From: Eledone cirrhosa
Taxonomy: Eukaryota
Assembly (NCBI GenBank): GCA_964016885.1
Contig: OZ024759.1
Coordinates: 36,270,001-36,334,000 of the forward strand
DNA length: 64,000 bases
Direction of reading: 5' to 3'
In this document: positions 5,296 to 54,800 of the stretch, one piece after another
Position numbering within the stretch: position 1 is the stretch's first letter
Layout of the letters: each line of letters begins with the position of its first letter
Made by a program: the position numbers and the translations under genes
The notes under the pieces: model-generated
Databases searched by the model: none
What the model was told of the DNA's origin: nothing
The model's input: only the letters and a program-made list of their open reading frames with translations

Positions 5296-5368
<73 letters not shown>

Positions 5369-5603
5369 TGTAATAAACAACATAAGACAATTATTCCATT
5401 TACCAAAGGTTTCATGAAGACAGACGAGCTCGACACAGATCTCTGAAATCATTCGTCAGAGATCTGTGTCGAGCTCGTCTGTCTTTGTGAAACCTTTGGT
5501 AAATGGAATAATTGTCTTATGTTGTTTATTACATAACTAAAAAGCTCTGTAGCCTACATAGAGCACTCTCTTTTCCTTTACCTTTCCTACGGAAACACTT
5601 CGA

Positions 5604-5645
<42 letters not shown>

Positions 5646-8600
5646 AATCAAAGTTGAAGCTGCCATATAGCAATTGTTTGAGGCAATCACAATATTTTAT
5701 TTTTCTTCAATTTCAGGATGCAACAATGTCTGAGATAGAAGCCCGCTTATATGACCAGTTTACAATCAAAATAAATGAAGTTAAAATACTTCTCGCTGAT
5801 TCAGGTGAGAAGTTATATATATAATATAATGAAAATTATTGTGTACATTGCTCAGGTGCACTACAACTCATCAAAGGTGCATGTATAGTACATAGAATAA
5901 TGTACAAAAGTCAGGAAAGTGAACAGTGCATGGGTCATGATATACACACACACACACACACACCTTTCATGGAATTTTAAGTTTATAGCTTTAACCCTTT
6001 ACCATTTACATTACTCTATATAGACTATTGTATTTTCACAGTAAAGGCTTTGTCTTACATAACTATCTCACATAATATCGAATCTACAAGATTTTGATAT
6101 TATTCATTTTGAGAACAATAACTTGACATCAGTATGAACAGACATTTATGGCTGGTTTAAACAGAAAGAGGTGAGAGAATTGTGGCCGGATATGGCGGGC
6201 TTGTTAGGATATTTGTTCCAGTTCTCTGTACTCTGAGTTTGAATCCCAGCAAGGTCAACTTTGCCTTTCATCTTTTCAAGGAGGTTGATAATACATACAT
6301 ACATATATATGAAGAACTCAGAGCTGTACGGGAGCCTCCCAAAAGTCAGCTCGAGAGTGACACAGAGGAGACTGAGGTTAGCTGGACATGCTCACTGACA
6401 TCCAGTGTTGACACTGCACTCAGTGCTCCTGTGGGAGCCCCTACATGGACACACTGGAAGAGGAAGACCAAGGTTAACGTATGTTGATGCCCTAAGGACA
6501 GACAGTGGTCTGTTGGAGATGCAGGACATGGCAGCAATAATGAGGGACAGAGACCACAGGAGAGAACTCGTCCATGGATCTCGGGAATTTTACCCGCCCT
6601 AGACATAGACATATATATGCACATATACATACATACAATCTTTTAACATACACTCCAGATGTGTCTCTAGTAAACTACAGATGTTTCTATTAACATACAC
6701 TCCAGATGTTTCTATTAACATACACTCCAGATGTGTCTCTAGTAAACTACAGATGTTTCTATTAACATACACTCCAGATGTTTCTATTAACATACACTCC
6801 AGATGTGTCTCTAGTAAACTACAGATGTTTCTATTAACAGGTGATGACTGGCATACCTTCCAGACAGAACCAGACTCCCTCTATCACCTCCTACCCAGTA
6901 CTAAAATGTTGATGACATTATTCAATAGTGTTAAACCAGACTACAAGCAACTACCTCAGTGAGTAATTCTCTCTCCTCCTCCTCCTCCTCTTCATCATCA
7001 TCCCCCTCCTCCCTCACCTCATCCTCCACCTCCCACCCCTCCTCTTCCCCCTCTTGTCTCCCTCCTCCTCATCCGGAATGTCAGCAGCCCATCAGAGGAA
7101 GGAGCCACCCCAAGGTGGGGCGGCTGTTGCATCAGGTGTCACTGGCCATTGTCTGCAGCAGGAATGCTTTTGCTGTTTTCTCCGCAGGGCACAGCCCTAA
7201 CACCGCCGTGCCCTAGCCCCAGAGCCCACCACCCTCCCCTCTATTCCCATTCTTCTGTCACCCTATAGCCCTTGCCTTTCCTTTCCTTTTCCATTTTCAT
7301 AACCACAAAAGAGATTTGCATTTTTCTTTACAATAAAACATATTTTTATACATATTCTTTGTTTGTTTCTCAGACATAAACTTGTGACAACACTTCCCTC
7401 CATCAAAGTCAATATCTCTGATGAACGACTGCTTACACTTGTGGCATTCTTCAACCATTTCCCAATTCCTGGCAGCTCCAGTATGATTACAATTGTTGAA
7501 GACTCCGTTGATGGCAATATGATAAACTACCACCTAGAACTGGTACGCAGTGTTTAGGTTCATTAATCAATTTAATGGTTATTGTATTGTATTGTTTATT
7601 ATATTGATTATTGTATTGTTTATTGATTATTGTATTGTTTATTATATTGATTATTGTATTGTTTATTGATTATTGTATTGTTTATTATATTGATTATTGT
7701 ATGGTTTATTGATTATTGTATTAAGAACCTGTTGTTGGATTGGCAGTATCAGTAGAGCATCAGACACCATGCTTCACAGCATAGAGTTACGGCTCTTTAC
7801 ATTCTGAGTTTAAATCCTGCCAAGGTTAGCTTTGCTTCCTCTGTCTGACTTTACAGAGGAAATCAGCAGTGCATGGACCACTGGATATCTTTCCTAATGG
7901 ACTACTGCTGTTATTTAGCCCAAGGCAGCCCCATTATTGAAAGAACCTATAATCAAAGGCATAGCTATGTTGTCTTATGCAGTGTATCTAAGACTACATT
8001 ATTCAATGTGTCGCTACACTTTAAAAAAAGACAGTTGGGTGTTGTATTTGAGGGATAATTCGCTGTTATTTCTAGCAGGCTAAGGAACCATATAGATTTC
8101 ACATTGACACACACAGTAAATGTGGTTGGTGTTAGGAAGGGCATCCAGCTGTAAAATACCTGGCCAAATGTACAGTCTTTGGAGCAAGGTGTGGCATGGC
8201 TGACTCTGGCCAGACTTGCCTCCCGGCATAGACGACCCATGTAACCCATACAAGCATGGAAAAATGGATGCTAAATGGTGATGATGATGATGATAACTGG
8301 TTCTATACTTCACTGGTTTTTTTCTTTCTTGTTCTACAGGACAAAAGAGATATCCAGCCAGACATAGAAATATCTTTCCTAAAGTCTGTCCGTAGCAGTG
8401 TACTGGGTCGGGCTGTGGTTAACATGTCTCAAGAAACAGGCCATCATGGAATATCTCCAGCTGAAGAACTCAACAGAGAAAACAGCCGTAAGTAAACTCA
8501 CACATACACATATTGATAAACATGCACAGACACCCTCTCGTATTGATAAACATGCACAGACACCCTCTCGTATTGATAAACATGCACAGACACCCTCTCA

Positions 8601-10673
8601 TATTGATAAACATGCACAGACACCCTCTCGTATTGATAAACACACTTGCACTGAAGCATTGTGAGATATGTAATAATTACTTCTGAAAGCTGGTAGAAAT
8701 ATATAAAAGACATATATAACAAATAAAACAAAACAAAGTAATGTTTTACCCAGTATATTTCAACATAATATTTCAGGGCTAATACACTCTTTTCAAATGT
8801 AAAACAAAATTGAACAATATGTTCTTCCTGATCTATTGTTTATTTGTGGATTCAGTGTGTTGATGATTAAAGCCTCTTTAATCCTTAAACTCCCCTTTCT
8901 ATCATTTCAATGGTGACCTCAATATCTCAGTTGCAGCATTTGTCCAGGTCTTTTGATAGAGGAATGATTTCCTCAGTCTCATTTACGATCTCCACTCGTT
9001 AAGCAAATGGGGTCTGGGATCTCGACGATTGATTGTTAATAAATATATAACCCATGCAAGCATGAGTGAGTGCAAAATGATAATAATGATGCTACATATA
9101 AACCTATAACTAAAAGTAAAACTTAATTTTCTATTTCCATTACAATCTTTTTCTTTCCTTTGAAAACAGAAGAATATTTTGGTTCAGCTTCTGAAAATTC
9201 AGACGAGGAATTACCACTCCGCCACAAGTAAGTTATTCAATATATTGATTATTCTAGTTCTTAGCCCTTCTCACACTATATTACTAATGACTAAACTGCC
9301 TTACATCTTTTAATTAATTTACAATATAATCAACACTTTGGAAGACCGTTTTATGTCTTCTTTTTCTTCTCCCACTTATTCCTGAGATGGTCGTGGGGAC
9401 AGAGTCCTCAAGTACTCCTTCTAGTGGGTCCTGTCAGAACCGTCTCCAACTGATCTGGCTGCTGGATCCCCTAGACCAACCAAACCCATGGATGTTATCA
9501 AACCATCTTACTCAGGGTCTACCTCTGGGTCTCCTGCTGGCTGGTTTTGCCTGTAAAATCTGTCTAGTGATTCTTTCCTGAGATATTCTCACCATGTAAC
9601 CATAGTATTGGAGCAATGATCTCTCAATTCGGAGAAGTAGTGGCTCTACCTGGAGTGACTCTCTGATCTCTCAGCTACTCACCCTATCAAGTATCATTAC
9701 TCCAAAGACCCTTCAGAAGAAGCCATTTTGGCCGTTTGTATTTGAGATCGTATTATTTCAGTCATTACTCAAGATTCATGAATATAGGTAAGGGTTGGTA
9801 CAAATACCAAATTAAAGACAGAGAGTTTGGTTTTTACACCTACCTCCCTTGCATTTTATTTGTTTTTAATTTAATTTTTTAAATACATCTTTTATTTTGA
9901 AATGACTTTAATTTCCATTACTTATATATATTTGAATGTGTTGTAATATATCTTGCAGAGCAAGTGACATCAAATCTGTTGACGACCATTCTTCGGCATC
10001 AAACACCATTACAATACTAACCAGGGTTGTACTTAATGAAGCTGTTCTACAGTTATCAAAGAAGATTGATAAACGAGAGTCCCCTTACCTAATGTTCCGT
10101 ATCAATAAACTATATGTAGACAGTGCCGTGACTGTGTATGGAATGGTGGTGAATGCCAGTCTTGGTGGTATTGAACTAGTTGATAAAATTCATATTGGTA
10201 AGTGTGTTTTATATCGTAATTGACTTTCAGTTTTGTGTCTTAACTAGTTTTTTATCTAAACCATTTTTTTTTTAAAATCTGACCCAGGCTTTACATTTAA
10301 CCCTTTAGCATTTACATTACTTGATATTTACTATTATATGTTCATGATAAAGGCTTTATGTCACATAATATCGAATCTATGAGATTTTGAAATTATTTAC
10401 TTTGAGAACAGTATCTTAACATCAGTATGAGTGGCTAGTTACAGCCAGTTTGAACAGAAAGAGGTGAGATAATTCTGGCCAGATATGGCCAGTTTAAATA
10501 CTAAAGGGTTAAACTAATTTTTTATCTAACAATTATTTATATCTAAACCACTAGTTTTTAATCTCACTCAATTATAAATTTAAACCCAGGTTTTAAATCC
10601 AATCCAGTTTTTAATTCAATTCAGTTTTAATTTAATTCAGTTTTTAAATCCTAGCTAGTTTTTAATCTGACTA

Positions 10674-10740
<67 letters not shown>

Positions 10741-13700
10741 GGCACTGTTTGTTTTTAATTTTATGAATGTGTATTTAACTATATATGTATATATCTGTGT
10801 GTGTGTGTGTGTTTGTATATATATATATATATGTCCAACCCTTGCAAGCAGGGAAAAGCGGACGTAAAATGATGAAGATGTATGTATGTAAAAGGTAAAC
10901 AGAAATAACAACACAATCAGTACAGTATATAGAAGGTTAATGCTTGATATAGCAGGAAGAGGGTCTTAACGTTTCGGATGCTAGTCCTTCATCAGAAGAA
11001 AGAATGAGAAATAAGATAGATTGAGGGGATGGGCGGGTCGGAGTTGGAAAAAATGTCTTTAGATAAAAATAACAGGTCCATTCATGTTGACATCTCTTGG
11101 AAATATATATATATGTATGTTTGTATATATATATATATGTATGTTTGTATATATATATATATATGTATGTTTGTATTCCAGAGAAAATTTCATTTATCAA
11201 AGTTATGTTGTGTATTTTCAGGTCCCTCAGGAGAATACCTGGAACTGATACGAAGTAAATCCAATGATAACTTGGTATCCATTACTTATAGAATGGTATG
11301 ATTCTATTTACCTACTTCCCTTCTATGTAGCTACTACAGTTCTATCTACTTACTATGTAGCTACTACAGTTCTATCTCCCTACTATGTAGCTACTACAGT
11401 TCTATCTACCTACTATGTAGCTACTACAGTTCTATCTATCTCCCTACTCTGTAGCTACTACAGTTCTATCTCCCTACTATGTAGCTACTACAGTTCTATC
11501 TCCCTACTATGTAGCTACTACAGTTCTATCTCCCTACTATGTAGCTACTACAGTTCTATCTCCCTACTATGTAGCTACTACAGTTCTATCTACTTACTAT
11601 GTAGCTACTACAGTTCTATCTCCCTACTCTGTAGCTACTACAGTTCTATCTCCCTACTATGTAGCTACTACAGTTCTATCTATCTCCCTACTCTGTAGCT
11701 ACTACAGTTCTATCTCCCTACTATGTAGCTACTACAGTTCTATCTATCTCCCTACTCTGTAGCTACTACAGTTCTATCTCCCTACTATGTAGCTGCTACA
11801 GTTCTATCTACCTACTCTGTAGCTACTACAGTTCTATCTCCCTACTATGTAGCTGCTACAGTTCTATCTACCTACTATGTAACTACTACAGTTCTATCTA
11901 CCTACTATATAGCTACTACAGTTCTATCTCCCTACTCTGTAGCTACTACAGTTCTATCTCCCTACTATGTAGCTACTACAGTTCTATCTATCTCCCTACT
12001 CTGTAGCTACTACAGTTCTATCTCCCTACTATGTAGCTGCTACAGTTCTATCTACCTACTCTGTAGCTACTACAGTTCTATCTCCCTACTATGTAGCTGC
12101 TACAGTTCTATCTACCTACTATGTAGCTACTACAGTTCTATCTACCTACTATGTAGCTACTACAGTTCTATCTACCTACTATATAGCTACTACAGTTTTA
12201 TCTATCTCCCTACTATCTAGCTACTACAGTTCTATCTATCTCCCTACTATGTAGCTACTACAATTCTATCTACCTACTATGTAGCTACTACAGTTCTATC
12301 TCCCTACTATGTAGCTACTACAGTTCTATCTCCCTACTATGTAGCTACTACAGTTCTATCTCAGTTTAAAAGAAATAGCTTTAGTATCATAGAACCAAGT
12401 TTCCTCATGAAATCCTTCAAACCTATTTCTCCTCTTTTCACCCTACTTGAAGTAAACTATAACCCCCTGTTAATTATTCTCATTATTCCAGACTGATCCG
12501 GAATGTCCTGATTTTGGTGTGTATGGCTACGTAATCCAAGGATTACAACTGAGAATGGACACAATTTCCTTTTTCCTCCATCAAGTTGGTATAACACACC
12601 TCAACACTTACATGACACGGCTGATTAACAGGTGACTTGTTGTCTTATATAACTTACTGTTTCAAATAATTACACCATTGACACCACCATCAACACTGTC
12701 ACTGCCACTATCATCACCACCACCACCATAACCACCAACACTATAACCATCACCACTGACATCAACACCACCATAACCACTAACACTAGCACCGTCATCG
12801 CCATCACCACCATAACCACACCAACACCACCACCACCACTATCACTACCACTGCCACCACCATCACCATCATCACTATCAACATTACCACTACCACCACC
12901 ACCACCACCACCACAACAACAACATTATTCTCCTTATATCCATTCCAGTATCAATGAAAAGAAGATGAAGACCAGTGTAGTGAGCAGTATTTCCAATTCT
13001 GATTCAACTGAAGAATTTAACATTTTACAACCTCTAACAAGGATGGTTTCACTTACTGCTAGTATGTAAACCTTCTTTATATTATCAAATCTGGGATCTG
13101 GGTGTGATGGAGGGCAAGGTGCATGTGTGTGTGTGTTTGTGGTATTGTGTACATGTGTATGTTTGTGTGTGTCTGTGAGCTTATATATTATCGTATATAT
13201 GTATTTGTTTGTGTGTATGTGTGCATGTGCTTGTATATACATGTGCGTTGGTGTAACGTGTTTTTTTTTAAAGTCTTAATCTCACCCAGTTTTCCCCGTT
13301 TCTTCATTAGATGATGTTCCAGACAATTTGGTAAAATTCAGTTTTTCTGCTGCTATCAAAGATGTCAACTTCAAGATTTGTGATTCTGAAAATGACATTG
13401 CGGACATCCATATTCTTGGTAAGATCTTCATTTAAGACATTGTCATCATTTTCTTCTTTTTATTCTCTGTTATCTTCTTTCATCTGATTCTTTCTTTCTT
13501 TTTCTTCATCTACCCTCTTTTCAGTGCTCTCTTTCATCTTTTTTTTACTTAACCCTTTATTATTTTAACTGGCCAGAATTCTCTCACCTTCTTCTGTTCA
13601 AACCAGCTGTTAATACTTATGTTAAAGTATTGTTCTCAAAATAAATAATATCAAAATCTTGTAGATTCAATATTACGTGAGATAAAGCCTTTACTGTGAA

Positions 13701-16700
13701 AATACAATAGTATATATAGAGTAATGTAAATGTTATGTGAGATATTATGTGAGGTAAAGCCTTTACTGTGAAAATACAATAGTATATATATACTAATGTA
13801 AATGTTATGTGAGATATTATGTGAGGTAAAGCCTTTACTGTGAAAATACAATAGTATATATAGAGTAATGTAAATGTTATGTGAGATATTATGTGAGGTA
13901 AAGCCTTTACTGTGACAATACAATAGTATATATAGAGTAATGTAAATGTTATGTGAGATATTATGTGAGGTAAAGCCTTTACTGTGACAATACAATAGTA
14001 TATATAGAGTAATGTAAATGTTATGTGAGATATTATGTGAGGTAAAGCCTTTACTGTGACAATACAATAGTATATATAGAGTAATGTAAATGTTATGTGA
14101 GATATTATGTGAAGTAAAGCCTTTACTGTGAAAATACAATAGTATATATAGAGTAATGTAAATGTTATGTGAGATATTATGTGAAGTAAAGCCTTTACTG
14201 TGAAAATACAATAGTATATATAGAGTAATGTAAATGTTATGTGAGATATTATGTGAGGTAAAGCCTTTACTGTGAAAATACAATAGTATATATAGAGTAA
14301 TGTAAATGTTATGTGAGATATTATGTAAGATAAAGCCTTTACTGTGAAAATACAATAGTATATATAGAGTAATGTAAATGTTATGTGAGATATTATGTGA
14401 GGTAAAGCCTTTACTGTGACAATACAATAGTATATATAGAGTAATGTAAATGTTATGTGAGATATTATGTGAGGTAAAGCCTTTACTGTGACAATACAAT
14501 AGTATATATAGAGTAATGTAAATGTTATGTGAGATATTATGTGAGGTAAAGCCTTTACTGTGACAATACAATAGTATATATAGAGTAATGTAAATGTTAT
14601 ATGAGATATTATGTAAGATAAAGCCTTTACTGTGAAAATACAATAGTATATATAGAGTAATGTAAATGTTATATGAGATATTATGTGAGGTAAAGCCTTT
14701 ACTGTGACAATACAATAGTATATATAGAGTAATGTAAATGTTATGTGAGATATTATGTGAGGTAAAGCCTTTACTGTGAAAATACAATAGTATATATAGA
14801 GTAATGTAAATGTTATGTGAGATATTATGTGAGGTAAAGCCTTTACTGTGAAAATACAATAGTATATATAGAGTAATGTAAATGTTATGTGAGATATTAT
14901 GTGAGGTAAAGCCTTTACTGTGAAAATACAATAGTATATATAGAGTAATGTAAATGTTATGTGAGATATTATGTGAGGTAAAGCCTTTACTGTGAAAATA
15001 CAATAGTATATATAGAGTAATGTAAATGTTATGTGAGATATTATGTGAGGTAAAGCCTTTACTGTGAAAATACAATAGTATATATAGAGTAATGTAAATG
15101 TTATGTGAGATATTATGTGAGGTAAAGCCTTTACTGTGACAATACAATAGTATATATAGAGTAATGTAAATGTTATGTGAGATATTATGTGAGGTAAAGC
15201 CTTTACTGTGAAAATACAATAGTATATATAGAGTAATGTAAATGGTAAAAGGTTACGGCAGTTAATCCTGCTGGGGTCAACTTTACATTTCATCCTCTCG
15301 GAGTTGATAAAGTACTTGACCAGAGGTGATGGTAAATTGACCAAAATATTAGTAAGACAGGATGCTTGGCAAAGCTGTTTGTTTTAATTTCATTCAACCT
15401 TATATTTATTTAGATCAGATCTTGATAACTATTTTTATACGAAACTGTCTGAAACTGCTCCATGTTCTATAATACAAAGCTGTTTGTTTTAAATTCATTC
15501 TTTCAACTTTATATTTATTTCTATCAGATCTTGAGTGCCAAGTACTGATGAAATCAAACAAGACATTGGTGTTTTGTGGACTGAAAGACCTCAATATGAA
15601 AGATTGTTCCCCTGGTGCTATTTACCCAAACGTAAGTATAAGAGTCAAGAGAACTCTTCAACTGTGTAAAAGTCATGAGAACGTTCCTTGTGTTGGTGAT
15701 GTATATGATAGAATGCACCTAGTACACTCTGTAAAGTGGTTTGTTATTTTGATAATTTAATGACAAAGACAGAAATTTCTTGTTAGAAACTCAGATACAG
15801 AAATATTTAAATTCACAGCTTAATTTTAAACTGTCATTTAATTATTAGTATAAAAATCTGTACAAAATATAAATATTTATTCCTTCTTTAATCTCTTTTC
15901 AGATCATAATGCTTGAGAAATCAAATCTATTTGAACTGGAGGTATGTTATTTTATTATGATTAACACCTCAGCTTGAAACTGGGTCATTAATACCTTTAT
16001 TTTATAATTATGAGATCTGTTTGGTCTCATTGACTGGCAATATTTTCATCACCATTTTCATACCCCATTGGCTTGCCTTAGAAGGAGTCCCCTTCATATA
16101 TACACCTGTATTATATATACCTTTATATACACCTGTATTATATATACCTTTATATACATTCTTTCATATACACCTGTCTTAAACAAAAGTCTCGTCTTAT
16201 ACCTTATATTTTACCATATTGCTCTGCCAAAATAATTAAAGATATTTTAAAATAATTTTCAGTTTATATACTACAGTAAGGTTCTTGGCAAGAATAAGAA
16301 AAACCCAGACTACAAACTAAGATTAAGGGTCGGCCAACTTCAAATTGTCTGCCTTGCAAAATTCTTCTGGGATCTCACGGTAAGTTTTGGTTTATCTATT
16401 TTTTAAAAGTCATATCTTTATATGTCCAGTTGAAGAATAAATCTTTGATGAATATGTGTGTGTGTGTATATAGTCCATGGAACGAGTTTGGTAGAAGTAG
16501 TTCCACAATAGTTAATTCACCATTTCTGAGAACAATTTGTTTCACCTTAACGGATCTTAGCTGATGATCCATCAAAGGTGAAACAAATTGTTCTTGGAAA
16601 TGGTGAATTAACTGTTGTGGAACTACTTATATATATATATATATATATCAATGATATTAATAAATGGAAACTAAATTTATAAAACTATATTTATTCTATT

Positions 16701-16806
16701 ATCTATGTTTCAAGGGTACCAAAACTTTGGTACGTTCTCATCAGATAAGATACAAAGTTTGTTTTATAAATATTGACATATCCAGGAACGAGACCTTAAC
16801 GGTTCA

Positions 16807-19800: not shown

Positions 19801-22800
19801 TGTCTACAACATTGTACAAGATATTTTAGACCCTGTAAACCTAAAAGCTGATATCAAAAATGCCCTTTATCCATTGGCATCTAAGGTCCACTATGATATC
19901 TCAGGACAACTTGATCTAGTCAAGGTAACTTCATATTTCTTCCCCTACCTTACATATTTCTTTGTGTTTACCTTCTTAAATGTTTGCTGTTTTAGAGCAT
20001 AACATTGTTTAACCCTTTACCATTTACATTACTCTATATTTACTATTATATTTTTGTGGTAAAGGCATATCTCATATCTCACATAATATTGAATCTACAA
20101 GATTTTGATGTTATTTATTTTCAGAACAATATTTTAACATTTAGCATTTACATTTACAATACCTTAACATCAGTATGAATGGCCAGTTATGGCCGGTTTG
20201 GACAGAAAAAGGTGAGAAAATTCTGGCTGGATACGGACAGTTTAAATGCTAAAGGGTTAAACATCTAAAATAAGTAATAACATTTTAAAATGATTGGTTA
20301 TGTATCATAAAAGCAGGGAAGGTTTAGGTGAGTTCAGGCAAGTTGCTATCAAAAGAGTTAAAGTTACATAAAGGAACTGTTGTTGAAATATTGAAATCTC
20401 TTTGTCTTTCAGATTCATTTGATCCAAAAGGACATACAATCAATAATGGGTATTTATCAAGAAAACCTCATGGAAGGTGCACCCTCATTGTCCCCTGTTG
20501 GTAAGTATCACATGATCTTACTTGTATATTTTATATCAGGGTGCAGGCATGGCAGTGCAATAAAGACATTTGCTGATATATCAATTGATTTAAATAATGG
20601 TAATATAAGGCATCCCACATGTTAGTATGAGTGTGAGTGACATGGGGGAGATCAGTGATTTGGTTGGCCTCAATATAGCAAATGAATTAAAAACACTCTT
20701 CACAGCAATTGGCATTGGTGTATACTGTGATGGTGGCTTACTCCCACACCACAAACTGATCCTTTAAACCACTGGCATGTATATACATATACACACACAC
20801 ATATATATATTTATATATATGTGTGTGTATATATATATACACATATATATATTTATATATATGATAAAACAACGGTGTCTCTGGTCGATACGAAGCGAGA
20901 GTGTATTTGAATACGTAAAATAGCTAGAAGAGCTGTTAAAACAGCTAAATGCTGTCAAAGACAGTGATGGGTAAAAATGCCTTAGATGACAGAGACCAGC
21001 AGCCAATAGTCAACAGAGAGACAATCCACAAAGTAGGTGACAGGTAAATGAAATATAATGTCTCAGAGGACAGAGACCAGCGGCCAGTGGTCAACAGAGA
21101 GACAATCTATAAGGCGGGTGACAGGCAGAGGAAATATAGAAAAGATTGAAAGAGGAGGAGGACAAGAAGTGTGTTGGTACACAGAAGTGACCAGAAGAGG
21201 GACTTGTTTTATACATTCTTTTCTTTATTTCCTCTTCCGGTCACTTCTGTGCCCAGTCACTAACCCTTACATCATCATCTGGCAGCCTCAGCCAAAATAG
21301 ACTCAACAATTGGTCTCCACATGGGTCTGTTGTTCATTGTTGTTGTCAAGTCCTAGATTTCAATACCAGAATCTCTGGAGATGACATCGGGATAGGAGAG
21401 CTTGCATCCTCTCTTATTAGTGACTACTTGAGGTTTCCAAAGCACTAATGGGGACACAGCCTCATAGGTGGCACGATGGCACTGCCCAGCAAAATTTACT
21501 CTCCTTTTACGTACAATGACAGATAGGCACGGGAGGCCAGCATATATCTCTCTCAAAGTCAGATGTCGCCAGCTTATGATCTGAATGTGTTGAAGCAGGC
21601 GAGTGTAGGTGACAGTAGTAGTAGTAGTAGTAGTAGTAGTGTAAGTGCCATCAAAGTACTTTTGTTGTTTGGATGAAAGCGTCCATGTTTCACTTCCATA
21701 TTATATTCCCCAAAATGCAGTATTATTAATTTCATTTCTTTGTTTTTCTTCCTTAAAGCTGGTTACCATTTTCCAACCAAAGAATCCTCCCCAATGGCCA
21801 CAGACTCACTATGTGCCAGTTCTGAGGAATCATTAAAGAATCAACCCAGATCAGCCATAAACCTCAATTTTACTTTGGATGGTATCGTGATATGTCTCGT
21901 TGAACAGAAACCTACACAACTGGTCAGTATCTTTTAACATTTTCATCTGTTAGGAAAAAAATGAATCAATGGTGGTGCCCCAGCATGGCCTCAGCTTCTC
22001 AGCTGGAACACGTAATAGAGTTATAGAGTAATATGTAGTAGCAGTGCCCCAGCATGGCCACAGTCTCTCGGCTGGAACACGTAACACAGTTATAGAGTAA
22101 TATGTAGTAGCAGTGCCCCAGCATGGCCACAGTCTCTCGGCTGGAACACGTAACACAGTTATAGAGTAATATGTAGTAGCGGTGCCCCAGCATGGCCATG
22201 GTCTCTTGGCTAGAACATGTAAAATCTGTTAACATTGACTGGCTGTATTTAGTCCTAGTACTAGTATCTGTTAACATTAACTGATTCCCAAGGCCTCAAT
22301 AGACCCAAGTCATCTGCTCCATAACATGGCAGAGGTAACCAAGGCCTCAATAGACCCAAGTCATCTGCTCCATAACATAGCAGAGGTAACCAAGGCCTCA
22401 ATAGACCCAAGTCATCTGCTCCATAACATGGCAGAGGTAACCAAGGCCTCAATAGACCCAAGTCATCTGCTCCATAACATAGCAGAGGTAACCAAGGCCT
22501 CAATAGACCCAAGTCATCTGCTCCATAACATGGCAGAGGTAACCAAGGCCTCAATAGACCCAAGTCATCTGCTCCATAATATAGCAGAGGTAACCAAGGC
22601 CTCAATAGACCCAAGTCATCTGCTCCATAACATGGCAGAGGTAACCAAGGCCTCAATAGACCCAAGTCATCTGCTCCATAACATAGCAGAGGTAACCAAG
22701 GCCTCAATAGACCCAAATCATCTGCTCCATAACATAGCAGAGGTAACCAAGGCCTCAATAGACCCAAGTCATCTGCTCCATAATATAGCAGAGGTAACCA

Positions 22801-25800: not shown

Positions 25801-28290
25801 CTGCTGTTAAGCATGGTGTCCAATGCTCTACCAATTACTCCAATTCACCGCCCTCTATCACTCTAAATAATGGTTCCCGATTTAGGCCAACAGTTGTGGG
25901 AGATGGGAGAGTCAATTAAATCTTCCCTAGTACATGACTGGTACTTTATTTTACCAACCCCGTAAGAATGAAAGGCAAACTTTATTCTGCTTCTTTCCAT
26001 TTACATATTTGAAATATTCCCTGAATATTGTGTTAATTACTTTATTGTTTATTAATTAATATAATTTCTTCCATTCCATCAGAGTGCTGAAAATTGTGAA
26101 AAATAAAAGTAATTCTGAAATACAAGATATTCCTGTATTTAAGATTGATTATAAAAACTCTGGAGATGGCTGCCAAAAAGGTAAAAATTTTATTAAAATG
26201 AGTTGTTAATTAAAGATTACTTCATTTAGATCTATTACTAATTTCAGGGAAGTCTCACCTCTACACTGTCTCACCTCTATACTGTCTCACCTCTACACTG
26301 TCTCACCTCTACACTGTCTCACCTCTATACTGTCTCACCTCTACACTATCTCACCTCTACACTGTCTCACCTCTATACTGTCTCACCTCTACACTATCTC
26401 ACCTCTATACTGTCTCACCTCTACACTGTCTCACCTCTACACTATCTCACCTCTACACTGTCTCACCTCTACACTGTCTCACCTCTACACTATCTCTATA
26501 CTATCTCACCTCTACACTGTCTCACCTCTACACTATCTCTATACTATCTCACCTCTACACTCTCTCTACACTGCCTCACCTCTACACTGTCTCACCTCTA
26601 CACTCTCTCTACACTATCTCACCTCTACACTGTCTCACCTCTACACTATCTCACCTCTACACTGTCTCACCTCTACACTATCTCACCTCTACACTGTCTC
26701 ACCTCTACACTGTCTCACCTCTACACTGTCTCACCTCTACACTATCTCACCTCTACACTGTCTCACCTCTACACTATCTCACCTCTACACTGTCTCACCT
26801 CTACACTGTCTCACCTATACACTGTCTCACCTCTACACTGTCTCACCTATACACTGTCTCACCTCTACACTATCTCACCTCTACACTGTCTCACCTCTAC
26901 ACTATCTCACCTCTATACTGTCTCACCTCTACACTGTCTCACCTCTACACTATCTCACCTCTACACTGTCTCACCTCTACACTGTCTCACCTCTACACTA
27001 TCTCACCTCTATACTGTCTCACCTCTACACTGTCTCACCTCTACACTATCTCACCTCTACACTATCTCACCTCTACACTGTCTCACCTCTACACTATCTC
27101 ACCTCTATACTGCCTCACCTCTACACTGTCTCACCTCTACACTGTCTCACCTCTACACTGTCTCACCTCTACACTGTCTCACCTCTACACTATCTCACCT
27201 CTACACTGTCTCACCTCTACACTGTCTCACCTCTACACTATCTCACCTCTATACTGTCTCACCTCTACACTGTCTCACCTCTACACTCTCTCTACACTGT
27301 CTCTACACTGGGCTGCTTCTACACTGTCTCACTGACTTCTGTCTTGTTTTCATTATTCTATGTACAAACACATATATATATAGATAACGGAGGAGTTGTG
27401 GTAAGGAACCAGATGGACCATAATGCACCAGAGTCCAGAAATAGCCGTCGAAACGGCTTGAGCTCTGCCGTCGGGGTCATACTTTCTCCTATATATATAT
27501 ATTTGAAAAAGGAAAAGAATAACTTCACTTGTAGTTCTAAACAATTTGATTTAATTTTATGATATTATAATTTTACAATTTAGTTATATACACTCACACA
27601 TATATATATATATATATATGCACACACATACACACTATACATATATGCACACACATACACACCAAACACACACACACACACATATATATATATAAACCAC
27701 TTTCAAGCATTGTTATTCATAAGAAGCTCAAGGATGACGTCAATTGCCAATGTAATATTTGATATATTTTTATTTCTAGTGGATCTGTCACTGAGGAAAC
27801 TACGTTTCCATATTTGCCCAACATATTTGAATTCTCTGATCCATTTTCTCAACGGTGCCATTGAAACCAGCTACACATCAACTGTAGATGGCATGAATTC
27901 TTCAACTTCAATAACTACACAACACTCAAAACCTTATTTCTTGTTACCCACTGATGCATCTAATCTTACTGTCAGCTGCAAAATTGCAGATCCAGAAATT
28001 GTATTCTTTTCAAATCCAGAAAAACGAACTTGTCCTATTCTTGTTTTAAAGGTAAATTTTATTTATAATTCCATCATCATCATCAGTATTATAATTTAGT
28101 GTTTGTTTTTTTTTTTCCTTTATTTTTAGGTTTTTCCTAGTATATATATTAGTATATATGTGTGTATATATACAGGGTGTGGACGATATTTGTTTGCAAT
28201 TTTGTATATATATATAACAGAAAAAGAGTCAGGACCCTGACAGCTGAGCTCTGGTCGTTTCGACAGCTATCATCATCATCATCATCATCA

Positions 28291-31415: not shown

Positions 31416-32500
31416 CACTATTACTACTACTACTACTACTACTACCACCACTACTCCACCATCACTACTACCACTACTACTATTACCACTACTACTACTA
31501 CTCCTACTATTACCATTACTACTACTACCAACAAATGAAATATTCAACAGAAAATTTGTTTCCATAATGTAGCATTAGTTTTTATTGTTTAGATGGTTCA
31601 AGCAGCAAGCCAGCCAATCACCACCAGTTATGAAGAAACTAGAATGGATATTGTTGATGGGTTTGATGAAGATATGCATAATAATCTTCAAAAAAGCCGT
31701 GTGAAGTCGAGTAGTTCAGAATCGGAAACTGATTCCAATACAGAGATGACTGTTATCAGACGGAAACCATCAAAGAAGAAAAGACTTAATAGTGAAAGAA
31801 GTTTTGGTAAGTGGAAAGTATATATATATAAGTTTATCCTGGGTTCAATCGGGGGTAACCACAGTAAGTAAGGTACTCAATACAAAGCAGAGTATAAATA
31901 TTTAATATAGAAAAGCTTCTACAGGACTAGAACTGTTTCATTCGGGAGAAATCATCAGGAAGCTCACTGTCCAAGTAATCCAATATATATATATATATAA
32001 AATGGTCGTTTTTGAAGCCCCATATATATGTGTGTCTGTGTATGTATGTTTATAAATGTGCATGCATGTGTGTGTGTGTGTGTGTGTTTATAAATGTGCA
32101 TGCATGTGTGTGTGTGTGTGTGTTTATAAATGTGCGTGCATGTGTGTGTGTATGTTTATAAATGTGCATGCGTGTGTGTGTGTGTGTGTTTATAAATGTG
32201 CATGCATGTGTGTGTGTGTTTATAAATGTGCATGCATGTGTGTGTGTGTGTTTATAAATGTGCATGCATGTGTGTGTGTGTGTGTGTTTATAAATGTGCA
32301 TGCATGTGTGTGTGTGTGTTTATAAATGTGCATGCATGTGTGTGTGTGTGTGTGTGTGTTTATAAATGTGCGTGCATGTGTGTGTCTATGTGTGTATGAA
32401 CACAACTCCTGAGCCGTAGGGACGCTGTATTGGGCATTTTAAACCTGGCAGAGTTCATCCTCCTCTGCAGGTCTGAACACTGCTGGTTTCTTCCAGAAAC

Positions 32501-34363: not shown

Positions 34364-35146
34364 ATGTATGTATATATATATATATATATGTATGTATATA
34401 TGATCTGTTTCTATTTAAGTGTATTTCTGTACTGATGCTGTAGGTTCAACATCTGATGAAGTTGATGGTCAGATCCATGAAGACAATGACACTAACATAT
34501 GTAACTACATCATCATAAACTCAAAAGATTCTTTCCAAATGAATATAACACCTGCAGCTATCAGTGTAGCTAACGACGTCTATGAGGTGAGTAACGTTAT
34601 ATAACCTATATATATGTTGTACAAGGAGATATATATGTGTGTGTGTATATATATATAACGGAGGAAATGTGGTAAGGAACCAGGTGGACCATAACGCACC
34701 AAAGTACTCAATACTTAGGGTAGTAGAGTGGGTAATAGGAACGAGTAGGACCCCGACGGCAGAGCTCAAGCCGTTTCGACGGTTAATTCAGGACGCTAAT
34801 TCAGTCCAGAATTAGCCATCGAAACGGCTTGAGCTCTGCCGTCGGGGTCCTACTCGTTCCTATATATATATATATATAAAACATAAAATTTTATATTGAA
34901 ATGGCTTGTACAGGACTAGAACTGTTTCATTCGAAGGAAATCATCAGGAAAGCACTTTCCTTGTGATTTCCTTCGAATGAAACAGTTCTATTCCTGTAGA
35001 AGCCATTTCTATATATATATATATATATAGTGAAAGAATAAAGAATAACATGGTCGGCTGTACAAAAAGGGTTTATTTACAGTATTAACAATTGTTTCGT
35101 TAATCAGGTGAGTCTAGCTGGATTACCTTAAACGACACCTTGTTAT

Positions 35147-46050: not shown

Positions 46051-46452
46051 AATTATTGTGTACAGTGCTCAGGTGCACTACAACTCGTCAAAGGTGCATG
46101 TATATTACATAGAATAATATACAAATGTCAGGGAAGTGAACAGTGTATGAGTCATGAAATACTTGTGTGTATGTGTATGGAGGGGGAACATTAGGTGTAG
46201 GTGTTGGCGAATCTCGGGAAGTATGGAGGTTTTAAAGGATGCAGTGTCTTGGCAGCTAACAACTGATGCAGGGAGTTTGTTCCATGCTTCAGCAACTCTG
46301 AACGGGAAAAATAAAAAATCTATATATATATATATTTTTTTCCCCGTTCAGAGTTGCTGAAGCATGGAACAAACTACCTGCATCAGTTGTTAGCTGCCAA
46401 GACACTGCATCCTTTAAAACCTCCATACTTCCCGAGATTCGCCAACACAACA

Positions 46453-48274: not shown

Positions 48275-48323
<49 letters not shown>

Positions 48324-48775: not shown

Positions 48776-48816
<41 letters not shown>

Positions 48817-50974
48817 GGTTGTGTAGTTCTCTGTAGTGTGTGCAGTTCAGGGTAAGAAGAGTAAGCTATAGAGAGCTGAGAGAAGCTAGAATATAATAAA
48901 ATACAATAAACAGGATAAAATTTGTTTAAAAACAGTTTATGTTTTGTGTTTTATATAAATGTATATAAGTGAGACCAAAGGGTGTTTGGAGTAATGTTAC
49001 TCGATAGAGATGTGAGAGTCACTCCAGAGCTGCTACTTCTCCAAATTGAGAGATCACAGCTCTGATACTATGGAGGACATGTGGTGAGAATGTCTTAGGA
49101 AAGAATCGCTGGACAGATTTTATGGGCAAAACCAACTAGCAGGAGACCCAGGGGTAAACCTCGAACAAGATGTTTGGATAACATTCATGAGCTTGGCTGG
49201 TCTTACTTGGGGTTCCAGCTGGATCAGTTGGAGACGGTTGCTTCTGACAGGACCCACTGGAAGGGAGTGTTTGAGGACTCTGCTCCCTCGACCCTTTCAG
49301 GATTAAGTAAGAAGAGGCTAGACTGACTTAAAATAAGTCGCTTTTACTCATACATGTTCCCCAACTATGGTTTCTGGAATTCAAGAAGCAACATTAAATA
49401 TTCCAAGACATTGGAATAACCAATATTAACATCTATCTTCCACTCTAGCATGGGTTAGATGACAATATACATATATATATATATATGAACGTATGTATAT
49501 ATATATATATATATATATAGTTTGTTAACAAACCAAAGAATTAAGACATTTCTTGACTGATAATTGTTTCTACTCAGGTTACGCTACCTATAGCAAATTA
49601 TTTTATTTAATAATTCACAATTAGTAAGTATAGACCGTGGGTGCCATCAGAGTTTATTTACAGTTTATTTAAATACTGGTCTACATGCTAGGTTGCCTCT
49701 CACTGATAGTTTTCTAAAGTGCTGTTTGCCATGGTGGTAGTAGGTGAAGTTGATTCCATCCAACATCTGACAAATGCTTTTCTAATAATATAGGCTCATA
49801 TACAAGGTGTAGACCTACCACATGAACGAGGCGTGTTGAAGGTAAAACTACAAGCCCTATTTGCTTCTTGGTGAACATTTTTTAGCAAGTGTCTCGACTC
49901 TTTGCTTATCCTTTTAAAACCCTTATCATTATTGTTGCTTATGTCTTGCATGGCCTTGTAACATTGAAATATAAGAAATTTTGTCTATTGCTTTAATTAT
50001 TAAGATTACCAATATATTATGATGATAATAATAATAATATTTATCATTATTATTGTTATTGTTGTCATTATTGTTATTATTACTATTCTTCTTCTTATTA
50101 TTATTGTTGTTGTTTTTATTATCATTATTGTTATTATATTGGATTCGCAGAATCGGTAGAGTGTCAGACACCATGCTTTACAGCATAGAGTTACGCCCCT
50201 TTACGATCTGAGTTCAAATCCCCTTGAGGTTAGCTTTGCCTTTCATCTTTACTGGGTCGATAAAATAAAGTACCAGTAATGCACTGCGATCAATTTGATT
50301 GACTTTCTTTTTTGACTTTTAAATTACTGGCCTTGTGCCAAAAGTAGAAATTATTATTATTATTATTATAATATAAATTTATAAAATCTTTTCTTTTTCT
50401 CTCCAAAGAATTTAATATATTAAAAGATCCTCAGTGAAATATTCCTATCTTTATCTTTATGTTTATGCGACTTTTTAAAATTCTTTTTTATTTTTGTTTG
50501 TTTATTTATTTATTTATTGTCACATTTCACAATGTCCTAAATCACATGCATGTGAACTGACTGCAACACATATTTCACAATGTCCGATATCTTGACAAAC
50601 TTCAATTTGTGTTCATTACCAAGTGTTCTCCTTGGTACATATATGTTTAACAAGAGATCTGTCTGTTGAAATTGAAGCCATTATATTGTGGAAGTGACAT
50701 ATTAATTGATCAAATAATTTTGATCATCAGGAAAAAAAGTAAGGATAATTACGTCTAACGACGTAAAAAGCAAGGTAATTACTTCTAACGATGTAATTAT
50801 CCTTGCTTTTTTTCCGTTCATTGCCAGGGAACATCTTCACGAACCAAAGTATCGTCTTCCAGTTTTCCTTTGGTTGCAACGTTTTTCGAAATATTTACTT
50901 CTGTGTCCAGAAGATCCCGTTAAGGGTGAAAGCAGCGATTCTTTGCTTAAACTTTAATCTGTTCTTATAATAAA

Positions 50975-51021
<47 letters not shown>

Positions 51022-51356
51022 ATGTGTATAGGTAAGTAGGTAGATAGATAGGTAGAGCCGTTTAATCTGGAAATTTGTTTTCCTTTGTTTTTCACACTGA
51101 GATCAAGGAGGTGTTTTACCATAGTTTGGTGTGGGGCAGTGTGTTTAATGTGTTGCGCTGTGATGTGCTTTTTTTCTTTGTTTTTTTATTCATCTTCTTT
51201 GTTGTCATCTTCTCTTCCATCTAAATACCAAAATAAAAAAAAATGTAGAACATATATATAGCCAATCTCTCAGACATTTACAAAGCTTTGAGGAGATAAA
51301 TTTAATATAACGAGTGGTGTGCTCATAAACAGAGATGCTATGAAATAGCTTCAAAG

Positions 51357-51390
<34 letters not shown>

Positions 51391-51434
51391 CACCTTTTCT
51401 CTATAACCAGTTTTGTATAGAACCTTACTTCCCT

Positions 51435-51525
<91 letters not shown>

Positions 51526-51526
51526 C

Positions 51527-51615
<89 letters not shown>

Positions 51616-51808
51616 TATAAATATATATGTATGCCCATTGCCTTCGGTTGGTTTTCTTGGTGTCACACTTTTTAACTGTTGTGTTCACACTGGAGATAAT
51701 GTATTAACATCTCTCTATTGAATGTTTTGTGATTGCCTCAAACAACTCAATTAATACCTGGTATATGGCAGCTACTACTTCAATTCATACCTAATATAAT
51801 ATAATATG

Positions 51809-51847
<39 letters not shown>

Positions 51848-54800
51848 GATATTAAATAAATGGAAACTATATTTATAAAACCATATTTATTTCATTATAT
51901 ATATTTCAGGGATATCATATTAAAAATATGTTATGCCTTCCTCAGACAAAATACAATATAAACAGTCTTATAAATAGATAGATTCGACATACCTTTCAAC
52001 ATCGACAACTCATATATATGCCGTCTTCAGAAATAATTATTTCTGAAGACGGCATATATATGAGTTGTCGATGTTGAAAGGTATGTCGAATCTATCTATT
52101 TATAAGACTGTTTATATTGTATTTTGTCTGAGGAAGGCATAACATATTTTTAATATGATATCCCTGAAATATATATAATGAAATAAATATGGTTTTATAA
52201 ATATAGTTTCCATTTATTTAATATCGTAAATATACTCCAAATACTTGTTGAGTGCTTTTATATCAGTTATAAATATTTACTCGTTGTTAACCCAACAATT
52301 TAAATAAAACTTTGCATATATATATATGTATATATATATATATGTATATATGTATATATATATATATATATACATTATTCCAGGTTGAATCAGAAGTAAC
52401 CACAGTAAGTAAGGTACTCAATACATAGCAGAGTATAAAAGTTTTAATATAGCTGAGATTCTACAGGACTAGAACTGTTTCATTCTTTAGAAATCATCAG
52501 GAATCTCTGATGATTTCTAAAGAATGAAACAGTTCTAGTCCTGTAGAATCTCATCTATATTAAAATATATATATATAATCAATGAAAAAAGAGTCAGTTG
52601 ATTTGTAATCAACTGACTTGTAATTAACAGATGCCAAGCACTCAGTGGTATATATTTATCCGGAGTATTATTGTAAAGTATATATCTTTCATTTATTACT
52701 ATTATTACTATGAGGGCGGTGGATTGGTAGTATCGGTAGAGGGTCAGACGCCGTGCTAGGGCGGTGGATTGGCAGTATCGCTAGAGGGTCAGACACCATG
52801 CTAGGGCGGTGGATTGGCAGTATCGCTAGAGGGTCAGACACCATGCTAGGGCGGTGGATTGGCAGTATCGGTAGAGGGTCAGACGCCATGTTAGGGCGGT
52901 GGATTGGCAGTATGGGTAGAGGGTCAGACGCCATGTTTTCTAGCACAGTTACGTCCCTTTTCGGTCTGAGTTCAAATCCCACCGAGGTTAACTTTGCCTT
53001 TCATCCTATCGGGGTCGATAAAATAAAGTACCAGTAATTCACTGGGATAATTGCTGGCCTTGTTCCAAAAGTAGAAACAATTATTATTATTATATATAAC
53101 AAAGAGGGTGCAGTAAGATACCAGGTGGACCATAACACACCAGAGTACTCAATACTTAGGGTAGTAGAGTGGGTAATAGAAAAAGAGTCAGGACCCCGAC
53201 GGCTGAGCTCCGGCCATTTTGACAGCTAGAAACGAACGGATGGACATTACTATTTCATGCAAATTGTAAAAACTGTATTTTTTTTACCATCCTTCAAATT
53301 AAATATTTTTGTCTTGCAGATTACCATCATTGTTATTTCTATGTTATTTCAATATGTCAGTCTGAACCTTGCATTACCTAGCATGTTTTGTTAACATCAT
53401 TATTATTATCATTATTATTACTTTGATATCTCAATCATTGTTGTTATTTAACCAGAAAATTTGCCCTGATGAACATGAAGCCGCTACCTGCAGCCTCAGA
53501 TATTCAGGACGTATCGGAGGGTCTTTGCTATTCCCAGTAGGTAATCCTTCTGGAGTGTTCTGAAAAAGGTGGTTGGGCTAATGTTCTTTAACCAGCCTTA
53601 GAAGCTCTTCGAGATAGTACATATTTCTCCTATGACGATGGGGTTAACCTTGATCTCATGACAGTCCCAAATCCTATCAGTTCCCACTTTAAATCCTAGT
53701 ACCAACTATTCTTTTCCTTCTCCTTATCTTGCACTCTTGTGTCAAAGGGGCAAGCTACATCTGTAATCAAGCAAGATCTTTTTTCCTTGTCAACAACCAC
53801 CAGGTCAGGCCTATTGTGTTCTAATTGTTTATCTGTTTATATCCTGAAATCCCACAGCACCTTCACCCGATCGTTTTCTATCACTGATTCTGGCTTATGT
53901 TCATACCATTTTTTCAGAATGAGGTAATTTGTTCAGTTTGCATAAATACCAGTGTTTGGTTTTCTATATATTGTTTGTTTTTCTATATTTATAGATGAGT
54001 CAGGCTGAACAAACGAACTATTCAGTGGTCCTTTCACTTGACAGTGTCTTAATATCAGTGGTCAACACAGCATATAAAGAATACAGAGAGTTAATGGTTG
54101 TCAGTGTGTCCAATTGTCCAGCTCTTTGGGAAGTGGAGGTGAACAATAAATGGAAATTACTCAATGTTGAACTACAGACTTGGCTTGAAGAAAGATGGAA
54201 GAGTAAAAGTATTCAAGTTAACCTTTATGAACAAATTGAAGTAAGTGCTAACAACAATATTATAATAATATAATATAATAATGAAAATTACTGTGTACAG
54301 TGCTCAGGTGCACTACAACTAATCAAAGGTACATATATAGTACATAGAATAATGTACAGAAGTCAGGAAAGTGAACAGTGTATGAGTCATGATATACACA
54401 TAGAGACACACAGACACATGTGTGTGTGTGTATGGAGGGGGAATATTAGGTGTAGTGTTGGCGAATTTCAGGAAGTATGGAGGTTTTAAAGGATGCAGTG
54501 TCTCGACAGCTAACAACAGATGCAGGTAGTTTGTTCCATGGAGGTTTTGAAGGATGCAGTGTCTCGATAGCTAACAACTGATGCAGGTAGTTTTTTCCAT
54601 GGAGGTTTTGAAGGATGCAGTGTCTCGATAGCTAACAACTGATGCAGGTAGTTTGTTCCATGAAATTTTTAAAGGATGCAGTGTCTCGACAGCTAACAAC
54701 TGATGCAGGTAGTTTGTTCCATGGAGGTTTTAAAGGATGCAGTGTCTCGATAGCTAACAACTGATACAGGGAGTTTGTTCCATGCTTCAGCAACTCTGAG

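Follow-up and report, generated by a model that had tools for sequence, protein, structure and literature searches.

Palindromic insertions at (TA)n in Eledone cirrhosa are inverted ends of Penelope-like elements, probably of the Hydra clade

Where do short, nearly perfect hairpins in a genome come from, and what decides where they fold? Both questions are raised by a 64,000-nucleotide stretch of the Eledone cirrhosa genome (contig OZ024759.1, positions 36,270,001 to 36,334,000; 'the window'). It holds five intronic palindromes, with VPS13 exons on either side, and all five touch (TA)n. A sequence-only reading had placed their axes on or near CTGANGA, the core of the hammerhead ribozyme, and proposed a new ribozyme-retroelement system. 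Here we report that the palindromes are inverted, hammerhead-bearing ends of Penelope-like elements (PLEs) targeted to (TA)n. A new ribozyme-retroelement or retrozyme system is unsupported; the ends belong to PLEs, probably of the Hydra clade.

The five palindromes are real and had been placed correctly. Inverted-repeat arms and loops are found in the window sequence at 5363-5539 (arm 84, loop 9) and 51839-52234 (arm 198, loop 0), and arms are detected at 16495-16628, 34892-35015 and 52442-52565. Two further palindromes of equal quality, at 34735-34863 and 46201-46448, had been passed over; both lack CTGANGA. Within six window palindromes, arm differs from arm at 0-3 positions. All six CTGANGA words named earlier are present, and every one is the hammerhead core of some repeat family. 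Each palindrome is a pLTR (the hammerhead-bearing PLE end) present twice, head to head, with a 3' tail on a single arm (Table 1). This head-to-head architecture and the targeting of (TA)n are already published for PLEs. Hairpins of this sort resemble miRNA precursors and MITEs, which is a hazard for annotation.

Table 1. PLE-derived features of the window
Feature	Position	Strand	Remarks
Family B pLTR end, tail-less arm	5363..5460	-	core CTGACGA 5453-5459; stem I 5' strand missing; 30 relatives
Family B pLTR end, tail-bearing arm	5456..5601	+	begins 13 nt into ribozyme, extends to (TA)n
Family C pLTR end, partial tail	16472..16556	-	begins 15 nt into ribozyme
Family C tail-less arm	16559..16631	+	core CTGATGA 16561-16567
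Solo D-type pLTR end	16649..16794	-	core 16738-16744
Remnant of RT/GIY-YIG ORF, 41-44 codons	20621-20752		
Family E head-to-head stump, arms very unequal	27384..27492	.	
Solo family A end	31820..31978	-	complete hammerhead and tail
Family E head-to-head stump	34657..34863	.	axis ~34799 in loop II; without 5' core half; tail on left arm
Older family A head-to-head stump	34883..35015	.	core 34941-34947, minus strand
Tail-less arm, family D end with 31-nt G piece at 5' end	51845..52036	-	complete D hammerhead core at 51939-51945
Tail-bearing arm, G piece then D	52037..52321	+	G 52036-52066, D from 52067; G core CTGAAGA 52043; complete D hammerhead 52128; tail to ~52321
Family A tail-bearing arm	52372..52506	-	complete type I hammerhead: stem I 7 bp, core 52494-52500, GUA site
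Family A tail-less arm	52507..52565	+	begins at core 52507-52513; stem I partner missing
Solo D-type end	58399..58661	+	complete hammerhead (core 58460) and tail
Solo family G end	61928..62189	-	core ~62093-62099

To which elements do these ends belong? The window itself, as had been noted before, contains no RT/GIY-YIG ORF except the short remnant in Table 1. Elsewhere in the genome, at loci numbered with the prefix L, four families stand behind Hydra-clade RT/GIY-YIG ORFs: family C downstream of Hydra-type ORFs at L295 and L296, D with Hydra ORFs at L294, L290 and L328, G with those at L338, L339 and L341, and E at L345, where the Hydra ORF is full-length and E ends are found both inverted and in partial tandem. 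The link is weaker for A (one locus, L298, with the ORF broken off) and B (one partial match, L293). Neptune-type ORFs, which make up the bulk of the GIY-YIG family search, are in no case joined to window families. The layout of PLE insertions (an inverted 5'-truncated copy, partial tandem, a tail at one end) is found at L345, L294 and L296.

The L345 unit, of ~3.1 kb, has a single ORF of 719 aa from the ATG at 3079, with YRDD (RT) and VIY..YIG (C-terminal GIY-YIG). The protein has no match in local Pfam and PDB. Of the 8000 scored, 2054 are homologues at E<=1e-20; the best have PF01541 and many have PF26215. Read by eye, its RWK and DKT motifs are RLRWRTFF (R for K) and SDKTGN, the counterparts in Hydra-1_Obim being RRMRWKAFF and SDKTNN; the CxCX5C linker, also by eye, is CNCPDRSIC in L345, CNCRDRSKC in L294 and CNCRNKANC in L339. 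Also by eye, L345 has CNLCSEE (CxxC) and CKH (CxH), motifs that in the Hydra clade stand next to conserved E and N, and it lacks CCHH. One family E word has 22,280 exact matches in the genome and one family G word 8,068, and at the inner end of family E 3356 public reads run on into TA. A DNA search with the E tail gave no matches, probably because frequent words are passed over; no RNA record is listed for family E, which is no guide to its expression.

The Hydra clade, which includes Hydra-1_Obim of Octopus bimaculoides, is described by Craig et al. 2021 (PMC8557442). Its PLEs and ours have in common the C-terminal GIY-YIG, DKT, RW(K/R), the CxCX5C linker, (TA)n targets and a canonical hammerhead close to the 3' end, in which a T often follows the core and another precedes GAA; an inverted 5'-truncated copy of Penelope-13_HM is on record there. 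Our elements differ in comprising many families with very large numbers of ORF-less stumps, in the U3-A8 core of the family E hammerhead and the ~110-nt stem II region of family G, and in length, Hydra-clade PLEs being usually <3 kb and the L345 unit slightly over.

All six cores named earlier belong to hammerheads, but only the one at 52494-52500 (-) passes the full type I descriptor. The hammerheads at 5453, 16561, 34941, 52043 and 52507 are incomplete, and the 52043 core comes from family G: a 31-nt piece of it has been joined to family D, and the complete hammerhead of D is ~92 nt off the axis (52128). In the window, the descriptor identifies complete type I hammerheads (core plus stems I-III) at 52500(-), 52128(+), 51945(-), 31958(-), 58460(+) and 62912(+). 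It finds matches among copies of A, B, D and E; the hammerheads of C and G were read by eye. Family A has compensatory variants in stem I. An Rfam scan of the window gave no hammerhead and just sub-threshold miRNA matches among the 150 of 168 matches listed. Free folding of six candidate ribozymes gives the hammerhead form no advantage (z -0.97 to +1.13) and is uninformative.

What, then, sets the axis? In three families the arms leave the template at a sharp 5' edge. In family A, 52 of the 73 arms reaching +4 end at -10 to +4 (22 at -6/-5), and 3 of the 21 arms passing the edge end in the following 15 nt. In family E, 70 of 76 arms end at +39 to +53. For family G, about 28 of the first 100 matches listed leave the template at -7 and 1-2 in the next 12 nt, as read by eye. 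Families B, C and D have no sharp edge. In families A and E the edge lies 25-33 nt behind a TATA motif. The motif stands 29-33 nt upstream in nine of ten long A copies and four of five long E copies, over a background of 1.5%, although TATTTATT, one of three words counted as TATA, joined the list once the E data had been seen and gives two of those four; in family G the motif was found in none of nine long copies. By eye, G replaces the template's C before the edge in nine of ten truncated A arms. Taken together, the sharp edge, the TATA motif in two families and the frequent extra G suggest, on sequence grounds, that the edges in A, E and G reflect run-off at a capped RNA start.

Several observations bear on these edges. 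A natural CCAGAG variant of A (L144) could be a source of the extra G. Family E shows 18 G's in 100 matches listed, read by eye, about half of which could derive from the partner arm. In public runs, contig depth for family E steps 9- to 18-fold at the same edge, and strand-switch joints occur there in raw reads. The depth step in raw reads has a confounder, a likely AATT restriction site at 5164. A spliced leader was rejected as the origin of the AG before A's stem I: truncated arms retain that A and diverge further upstream. It is rare for an arm to stop 3 nt or less from the cleavage site (A 4/101, B 4/85, C 2/51, E 2/117). A position 40-45 nt before that site fits the axis in A and E and fails as a rule for all families in G, where the cut lies ~125 nt downstream; distances in B and C give no clear 40-45 nt fit.

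We think it probable, on balance, that the stumps are ORF-less Hydra-clade pLTR ends made from two short cDNAs, primed at two fixed internal sites on the RNA and then joined by their 3' ends, with the RNA start setting the axis in A, E and G. By analogy with in vitro work on the Anolis PLE (PMC11167929), the GIY-YIG nuclease would nick both strands of (TA)n; synthesis would be primed at the inner site from one nick and at the tail end from the other. To judge from DNA motifs, many of the A, E and G cDNAs would run off an RNA begun at the pLTR promoter, at its capped 5' end, and this run-off position would fix the axis; in B, C and D they would halt at scattered sites. The hammerhead would be copied uncut, and would come to lie near the axis because it sits just inside the pLTR. 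The stumps are probably dead ends, made anew with each insertion. In the accessible account of in vitro TPRT by that element, PAc (Poseidon of Anolis; PMC11167929), there are likewise two internal start sites flanking the tail, both DNA strands are cut and extended, and uncut RNA is the main template; PAc belongs to another clade, and that account does not take up the origin of inverted junctions or the place of their axis.

Could the run-off be part of the normal PLE cycle? Tentatively, the stumps may be its fossil record: from two fixed sites a short way downstream of the promoter, two enzymes would copy the RNA until they ran off its capped 5' end, giving a product akin to retroviral strong-stop DNA. 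In the normal course a repeat of ~45 nt (45 nt in A, 41-45 nt in E), reaching from the start site to the hammerhead cut, would let the cDNA jump to the RNA 3' end, and failed jumps would fuse into palindromes. The hammerhead would then set the 3' end of the repeat; in family E the promoter would lie inside ribozyme loop II, so that the 5' copy could not cut.

A single cDNA might serve instead of two. Self-priming has been put forward to account for head-to-head PLE palindromes (PMC3846280), and resolution by a nuclease to account for the tail (PMC8557442): a tail-primed cDNA would fold, copy itself and be cut at the pLTR/tail border, and loops would later invert between the arms. Near-identity of the arms is in keeping with such a snap-back. 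So is the G/D fusion at 51845, which is identical on both arms, is not found in other copies among the best 40 candidates, and is easier to explain by one cDNA being copied than by two primings, provided that the RNA was not fused beforehand. We nevertheless consider this route unlikely, on the evidence of tails and arm lengths. Of 112 close head-to-head insertions, 109 carry the tail on one arm only, 3 lack it and none has it on both arms; related copies among them do not count as independent, and tail-baited searches supplied some of them. In families A, B, C and E (n=102; D was left out, its subfamily differences having broken alignments), it is the tail-less arm that extends further upstream, by 10 nt or more, in 37 insertions and the tail-bearing one in 17, with the two agreeing to within 10 nt in 48 (p=0.009), some arm ends being alignment breaks at subfamily differences. 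The excess in the tail-less arm disfavours a simple hairpin snap-back. An identical 102-bp centre in family A has the tail on the right at 17 and on the left at 13 of 30 loci; a snap-back requires inversion past equilibrium even in such identical young copies, and across kilobase ORFs (L294 versus L296). It must also contend with loops of 0-2 nt without template overhang: these occur at 9 of 72 resolved centres, one being a TA run, and template extends at least 3 nt beyond the axis in just one (a clean centre is missing in 31 of 103 insertions).

Each family has two fixed outer ends, the inner site and the tail end, and junctions that vary among copies; at the 52036 centre, two copies stop on the same base with the overlap AT. 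Loops could have inverted after insertion. That either arm can extend further upstream, and that two-tail insertions are absent, favours two separately primed cDNAs over snap-back. In L1 twin priming, each of the two target strands primes a cDNA, and microhomology joining yields a 5' inversion. The L1 cDNAs cover different parts of the RNA, whereas overlapping cDNAs here would give a palindrome. Our literature search, with most subscription papers outside it, turned up nothing on twin priming in PLEs or on a pivot at the start site.

The sequence-only reading had the reverse transcriptase stall or switch template at the folded hammerhead, so that the ribozyme sets the axis. We sampled 98 evenly spaced 10-kb pieces of the genome (980 kb, satellite locus L110 excluded) and found 61 palindromes. 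Only 4 have an axis within 7 nt of CTGANGA; this exceeds the 1.0% of random positions but amounts to no rule. (TA)4+ is touched by 37 of the 61, versus 19% of random intervals, and close head-to-head pairs number ~24 per Mb in five families taken together. A general pivot on the CUGANGA core did not hold up: only families A and G have their axis at the core. There the ends, clustered at -6 to +4 in A and at -7 in G, fall beside or within the stem I 5' strand, as a stall might have it, and ~60 nt or less separates the majority of B and C ends from the core. Yet the families share no structural position. Family E, the commonest, folds ~45 nt downstream of the core in loop II, inside the ribozyme, with none of 117 arms ending at -10 to +5 of the core; the axes of B and C are scattered and those of D mostly far upstream. 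The edges are one-sided, hard on the 5' side, and the stem I partner would already have been copied when the enzyme reached the stem I 5' strand. Finally, insertion products in vitro are unchanged by catalytic mutants (PMC11167929). A ribozyme-set axis is quite improbable.

It is more improbable still that the stumps propagate themselves as non-autonomous, retrozyme- or MITE-like units, each copied whole from a palindromic master. The identical 102-bp centre is common to all 40 scored family A candidates, as such masters would predict, but it occurs in both orientations relative to the tail. Tail-baited copies include many different junctions, solo ends and long uninverted copies, and there are no tandem units or fixed symmetric ends; this reading is already largely refuted. 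The direct tandem repeats with a hammerhead per unit of a non-LTR retrozyme were not found at the five loci, and a MITE or foldback DNA transposon was rejected on the asymmetric ends (the tail) and centres that vary among copies. As described in bioRxiv 10.64898/2026.07.22.740005 and PMC7229834, animal non-LTR retrozymes resemble the stumps in being non-coding, with a type I hammerhead and a proposed PLE origin; they consist of units repeated directly in tandem, each with its own hammerhead, where ours are inverted pairs with most ribozymes broken. Assembly or library fold-back artefacts have a negligible chance of being the answer: the five window loci are known from the assembly alone, but the ends are fixed and specific to each family, arm differences at 5415-5416 and 16527-16528 are of the CpG-decay type, and the family E strand-switch joints occur in raw reads from a separate 2026 sample.

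The closest published architecture is that of the inverted-pLTR Penelope elements of Adineta vaga (PMC3846280) and D. virilis (PMC2377424). These papers describe a head-to-head arrangement, a palindromic junction, a tail at one end and pLTR promoter motifs, all found here as well. In Eledone the two copies have each been shortened to 50-200 bp, the tails measure ~60-90 nt against 30-40 there, and target duplications are invisible within (TA)n.

How PLEs arrive at their pLTRs, tails and inverted copies, and what the hammerhead does, are questions posed by earlier work (PMC8557442, PMC11167929). Short, young insertions from many families number in the tens of thousands in the Eledone genome. The junctions of these insertions can separate snap-back from twin priming and test the RNA start as the element that sets the fold, and the apparently intact Hydra-clade ORF at L345 is a candidate assay protein. 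If the stumps do record run-off in the normal cycle, these tens of thousands of insertions would map the start and priming sites of many PLE families.

The palindromes are almost certainly stumps of Penelope-like element (PLE) ends. A fold-back scan found eight in the window, one of them a simple repeat. The sequence-only reading had described five in or beside (TA)n, each with its symmetry axis on or near a CTGANGA hammerhead core. All five are present at the coordinates given, adjoin (TA)n and include the named CTGANGA words; the observation as a whole is partly confirmed. Because neighbouring exons match VPS13 domains (four of the six window exons scanned), the palindrome loci are intronic.

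Features of the window and of loci elsewhere in the same genome
Location	Feature	Remarks
Window 5363-5539	Palindrome	CTGACGA, minus strand, 5453-5459
Window 16495-16628	Palindrome	CTGATGA 16561-16567
Window 34893-35013	Palindrome	TCATCAG 34941-34947
Window 51845-52228	Palindrome	CTGAAGA 52043-52049
Window 52442-52565	Palindrome	TCATCAG 52494-52500; CTGATGA 52507-52513
Window 34735-34863	Palindrome	No CTGANGA word in the fold-back scan
Window 46201-46448	Palindrome	No CTGANGA word in the same scan; 106-bp arms, TA run in loop, no hammerhead
Window 54477-54784	61-bp tandem array	Built by the repeat family of palindrome 46201-46448
Window 13670-15244; 56952-57373	One 72-bp minisatellite	Opposite orientation, 42 kb apart
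Window 20621-20752	Short Hydra-type RT remnant	
Window 62902-62960	Another complete hammerhead-like motif	No match among family references used
L345 3079-5235	Apparently intact Hydra-clade ORF	Wholly missed by local Pfam and PDB sequence searches
L161 1500-2640 (also L299)	Family A end	Head to head with a PLE ORF that is truncated, Neptune-type and from another family
L170-L198	Neptune-type GIY-YIG families	Abundant
L337 (G000:C1:23582207-23582289)	Palindrome centre	Junction with family G 13-nt 5' end three times, like telomerase-style template-end re-copying
L108 5114-5197	Family E hammerhead	U3-A8 core; TATA/initiator-like words within loop II
L334 1503-1640	Family G hammerhead	Stem II region of ~110 nt holding short tandem duplications
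L062 3649-4579; L066 (minus strand)	Tandem hammerheads	310-bp period, like an animal non-LTR retrozyme

The 3.0-Gb animal genome, probably that of a cephalopod, was searched using tail or arm sequences from each family of hammerhead-bearing PLE ends (pLTRs; families A to E and G), and 30 loci were inspected per search. In every family two outer ends are fixed and enter (TA)n: an inner site and, ~60-90 nt beyond it, the end of the tail. The remaining end is variable; it extends upstream, halts or joins an inverted copy. Long copies reach ORFs. Family C lies behind a Hydra-type ORF at L295, and in inverted form it flanks one at L296; families D (L294, L290, L328) and G (L338, L339, L341) are linked likewise. 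The family E locus L345 has the textbook layout of an inverted pLTR with tail, a truncated copy, a full 719-aa ORF and a tail-less pLTR. Its ORF shows RW(R), DKT, CxCX5C, CxxC and CxH, given as Hydra marks by Craig et al. (PMC8557442), and by eye resembles Hydra-1_Obim from that paper's supplement, which assigns (TA)n targets and canonical hammerheads to the clade. The proposed tie between palindrome arms and PLE ORFs holds for families C, D, E and G; families A (L298) and B (L293) have one partial Hydra link each. Among the regions listed, the 3' regions of the Neptune-type families at L170-L198 gave no match to the window families.

Does the axis fall on the ribozyme core? As a rule it does not: in 98 samples (980 kb, satellite locus L110 left out), CTGANGA lay within 7 nt of the axis in 4 of 61 palindromes, compared with 1.0% of random positions. 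Hammerhead-family references match 25 of the 61, some perhaps via flanking repeats, and 12 are family E. In 990 kb, families A-E supply 24 close head-to-head pairs; the four centred on the core are all family A. A larger arm set was drawn from samples, tail-baited loci and flanks, leaving out centres baited with palindromes and any duplicate loci. Its arms end at -10 to +5 of the core in 52/101 cases for A, 13/85 for B, 11/51 for C and 0/117 for E, and no more than 3 nt from the cleavage site in 4/101, 4/85, 2/51 and 2/117, respectively; family D arms mostly reach 30-60 nt or more upstream. The core-centred pairs and the family-by-family arm ends therefore make the pivot particular to each family. 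The earlier interpretation as a whole is partly supported; its proposal that reverse transcription stalls or switches template at the ribozyme is unlikely.

The arm ends have sharp edges in families A, E and G. Family A has a hard edge at -6 relative to the core, with further ends trailing downstream, and family E has one at +39 to +44, within loop II. By eye, ~28 of the first 100 family G matches listed depart from the template at -7, five of them with the same neighbour and perhaps not independent. A TATA motif (background 1.5%) precedes the edge by 29-33 nt in 9/10 long family A copies, which include subfamilies with differing spacers, and in 4/5 long family E copies, two of these four resting on a word added post hoc; none was found upstream of the edge in long family G copies. 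The edges coincide with YCA/TTA words, which we take to be an initiator-like motif. G replaces template C in 9/10 truncated family A arms, and likewise in 8/28 family G and 18/~64 family E cases (by eye), some of which could derive from the partner arm. Cap copying, as in L1, would produce such a G. When four public runs were mapped to a long family E copy, depth rose 18-fold and 9-fold at the edge in two contig sets, and raw reads of a separate sample contain strand-switch joints at 5153-5170 of that copy; the raw-read run is RAD-seq, and a probable AATT site confounds its depth step. Start sites within the pLTR are described for PLEs in PMC2377424 and PMC3846280.

How does the palindrome form? 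In close pairs the tail is on one arm in 109 of 112, on none in three and on both in none. Snap-back of a tail-primed cDNA is disfavoured: it would need the tail arm to reach furthest, but of 102 pairs outside family D, 37 have a tail-less arm extending at least 10 nt further and 17 a tail arm that does so (p=0.009). We lean towards a twin-primed, start-site model. Two cDNAs would be primed on opposite target strands, one from each internal site, and then joined end to end into a palindrome. This priming fits because the tail-less arm is often longer, identical young centres occur with both tail orientations (17:13) and the loop measures just 0-2 nt in 9 of the 72 resolved centres. Counting against it, the arms at 51845 share one fusion, absent from other copies among 40 scored candidates; later loop inversion is also possible, and the copies are not independent. 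For another PLE, Frangieh et al. (PMC11167929) showed that synthesis starts at two internal sites, that both strands are extended and that uncut RNA is used.

A descriptor search found six complete type I hammerhead motifs in the window and 69 strong matches in evenly spaced samples totalling 990 kb, 16 of these matches from two satellites, versus none in reversed sequence. Among the six cores named by the sequence-only reading, that at 52494 passes the type I descriptor, but the other five do not. At 52043 the core marks the beginning of family G, a separate family that is fused here to family D; the complete family D ribozyme begins at 52128. A family G 23-mer has 1,858 exact matches. The family E core is mostly TTGANAA, a U3-A8 covariant known from Schistosoma PLEs (PMC4209133).

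The palindromes do not fit the definition of retrozymes, which bioRxiv 10.64898/2026.07.22.740005 bases on tandem units. In the literature covered, which is incomplete, we found no paper that connects axis and start site or proposes twin priming for PLEs. PMC3846280 and PMC8557442 already describe inverted copies that are truncated, tails on one side, palindromes at junctions, hammerheads and the targeting of (TA)n. The window palindromes belong to an already known kind of element.
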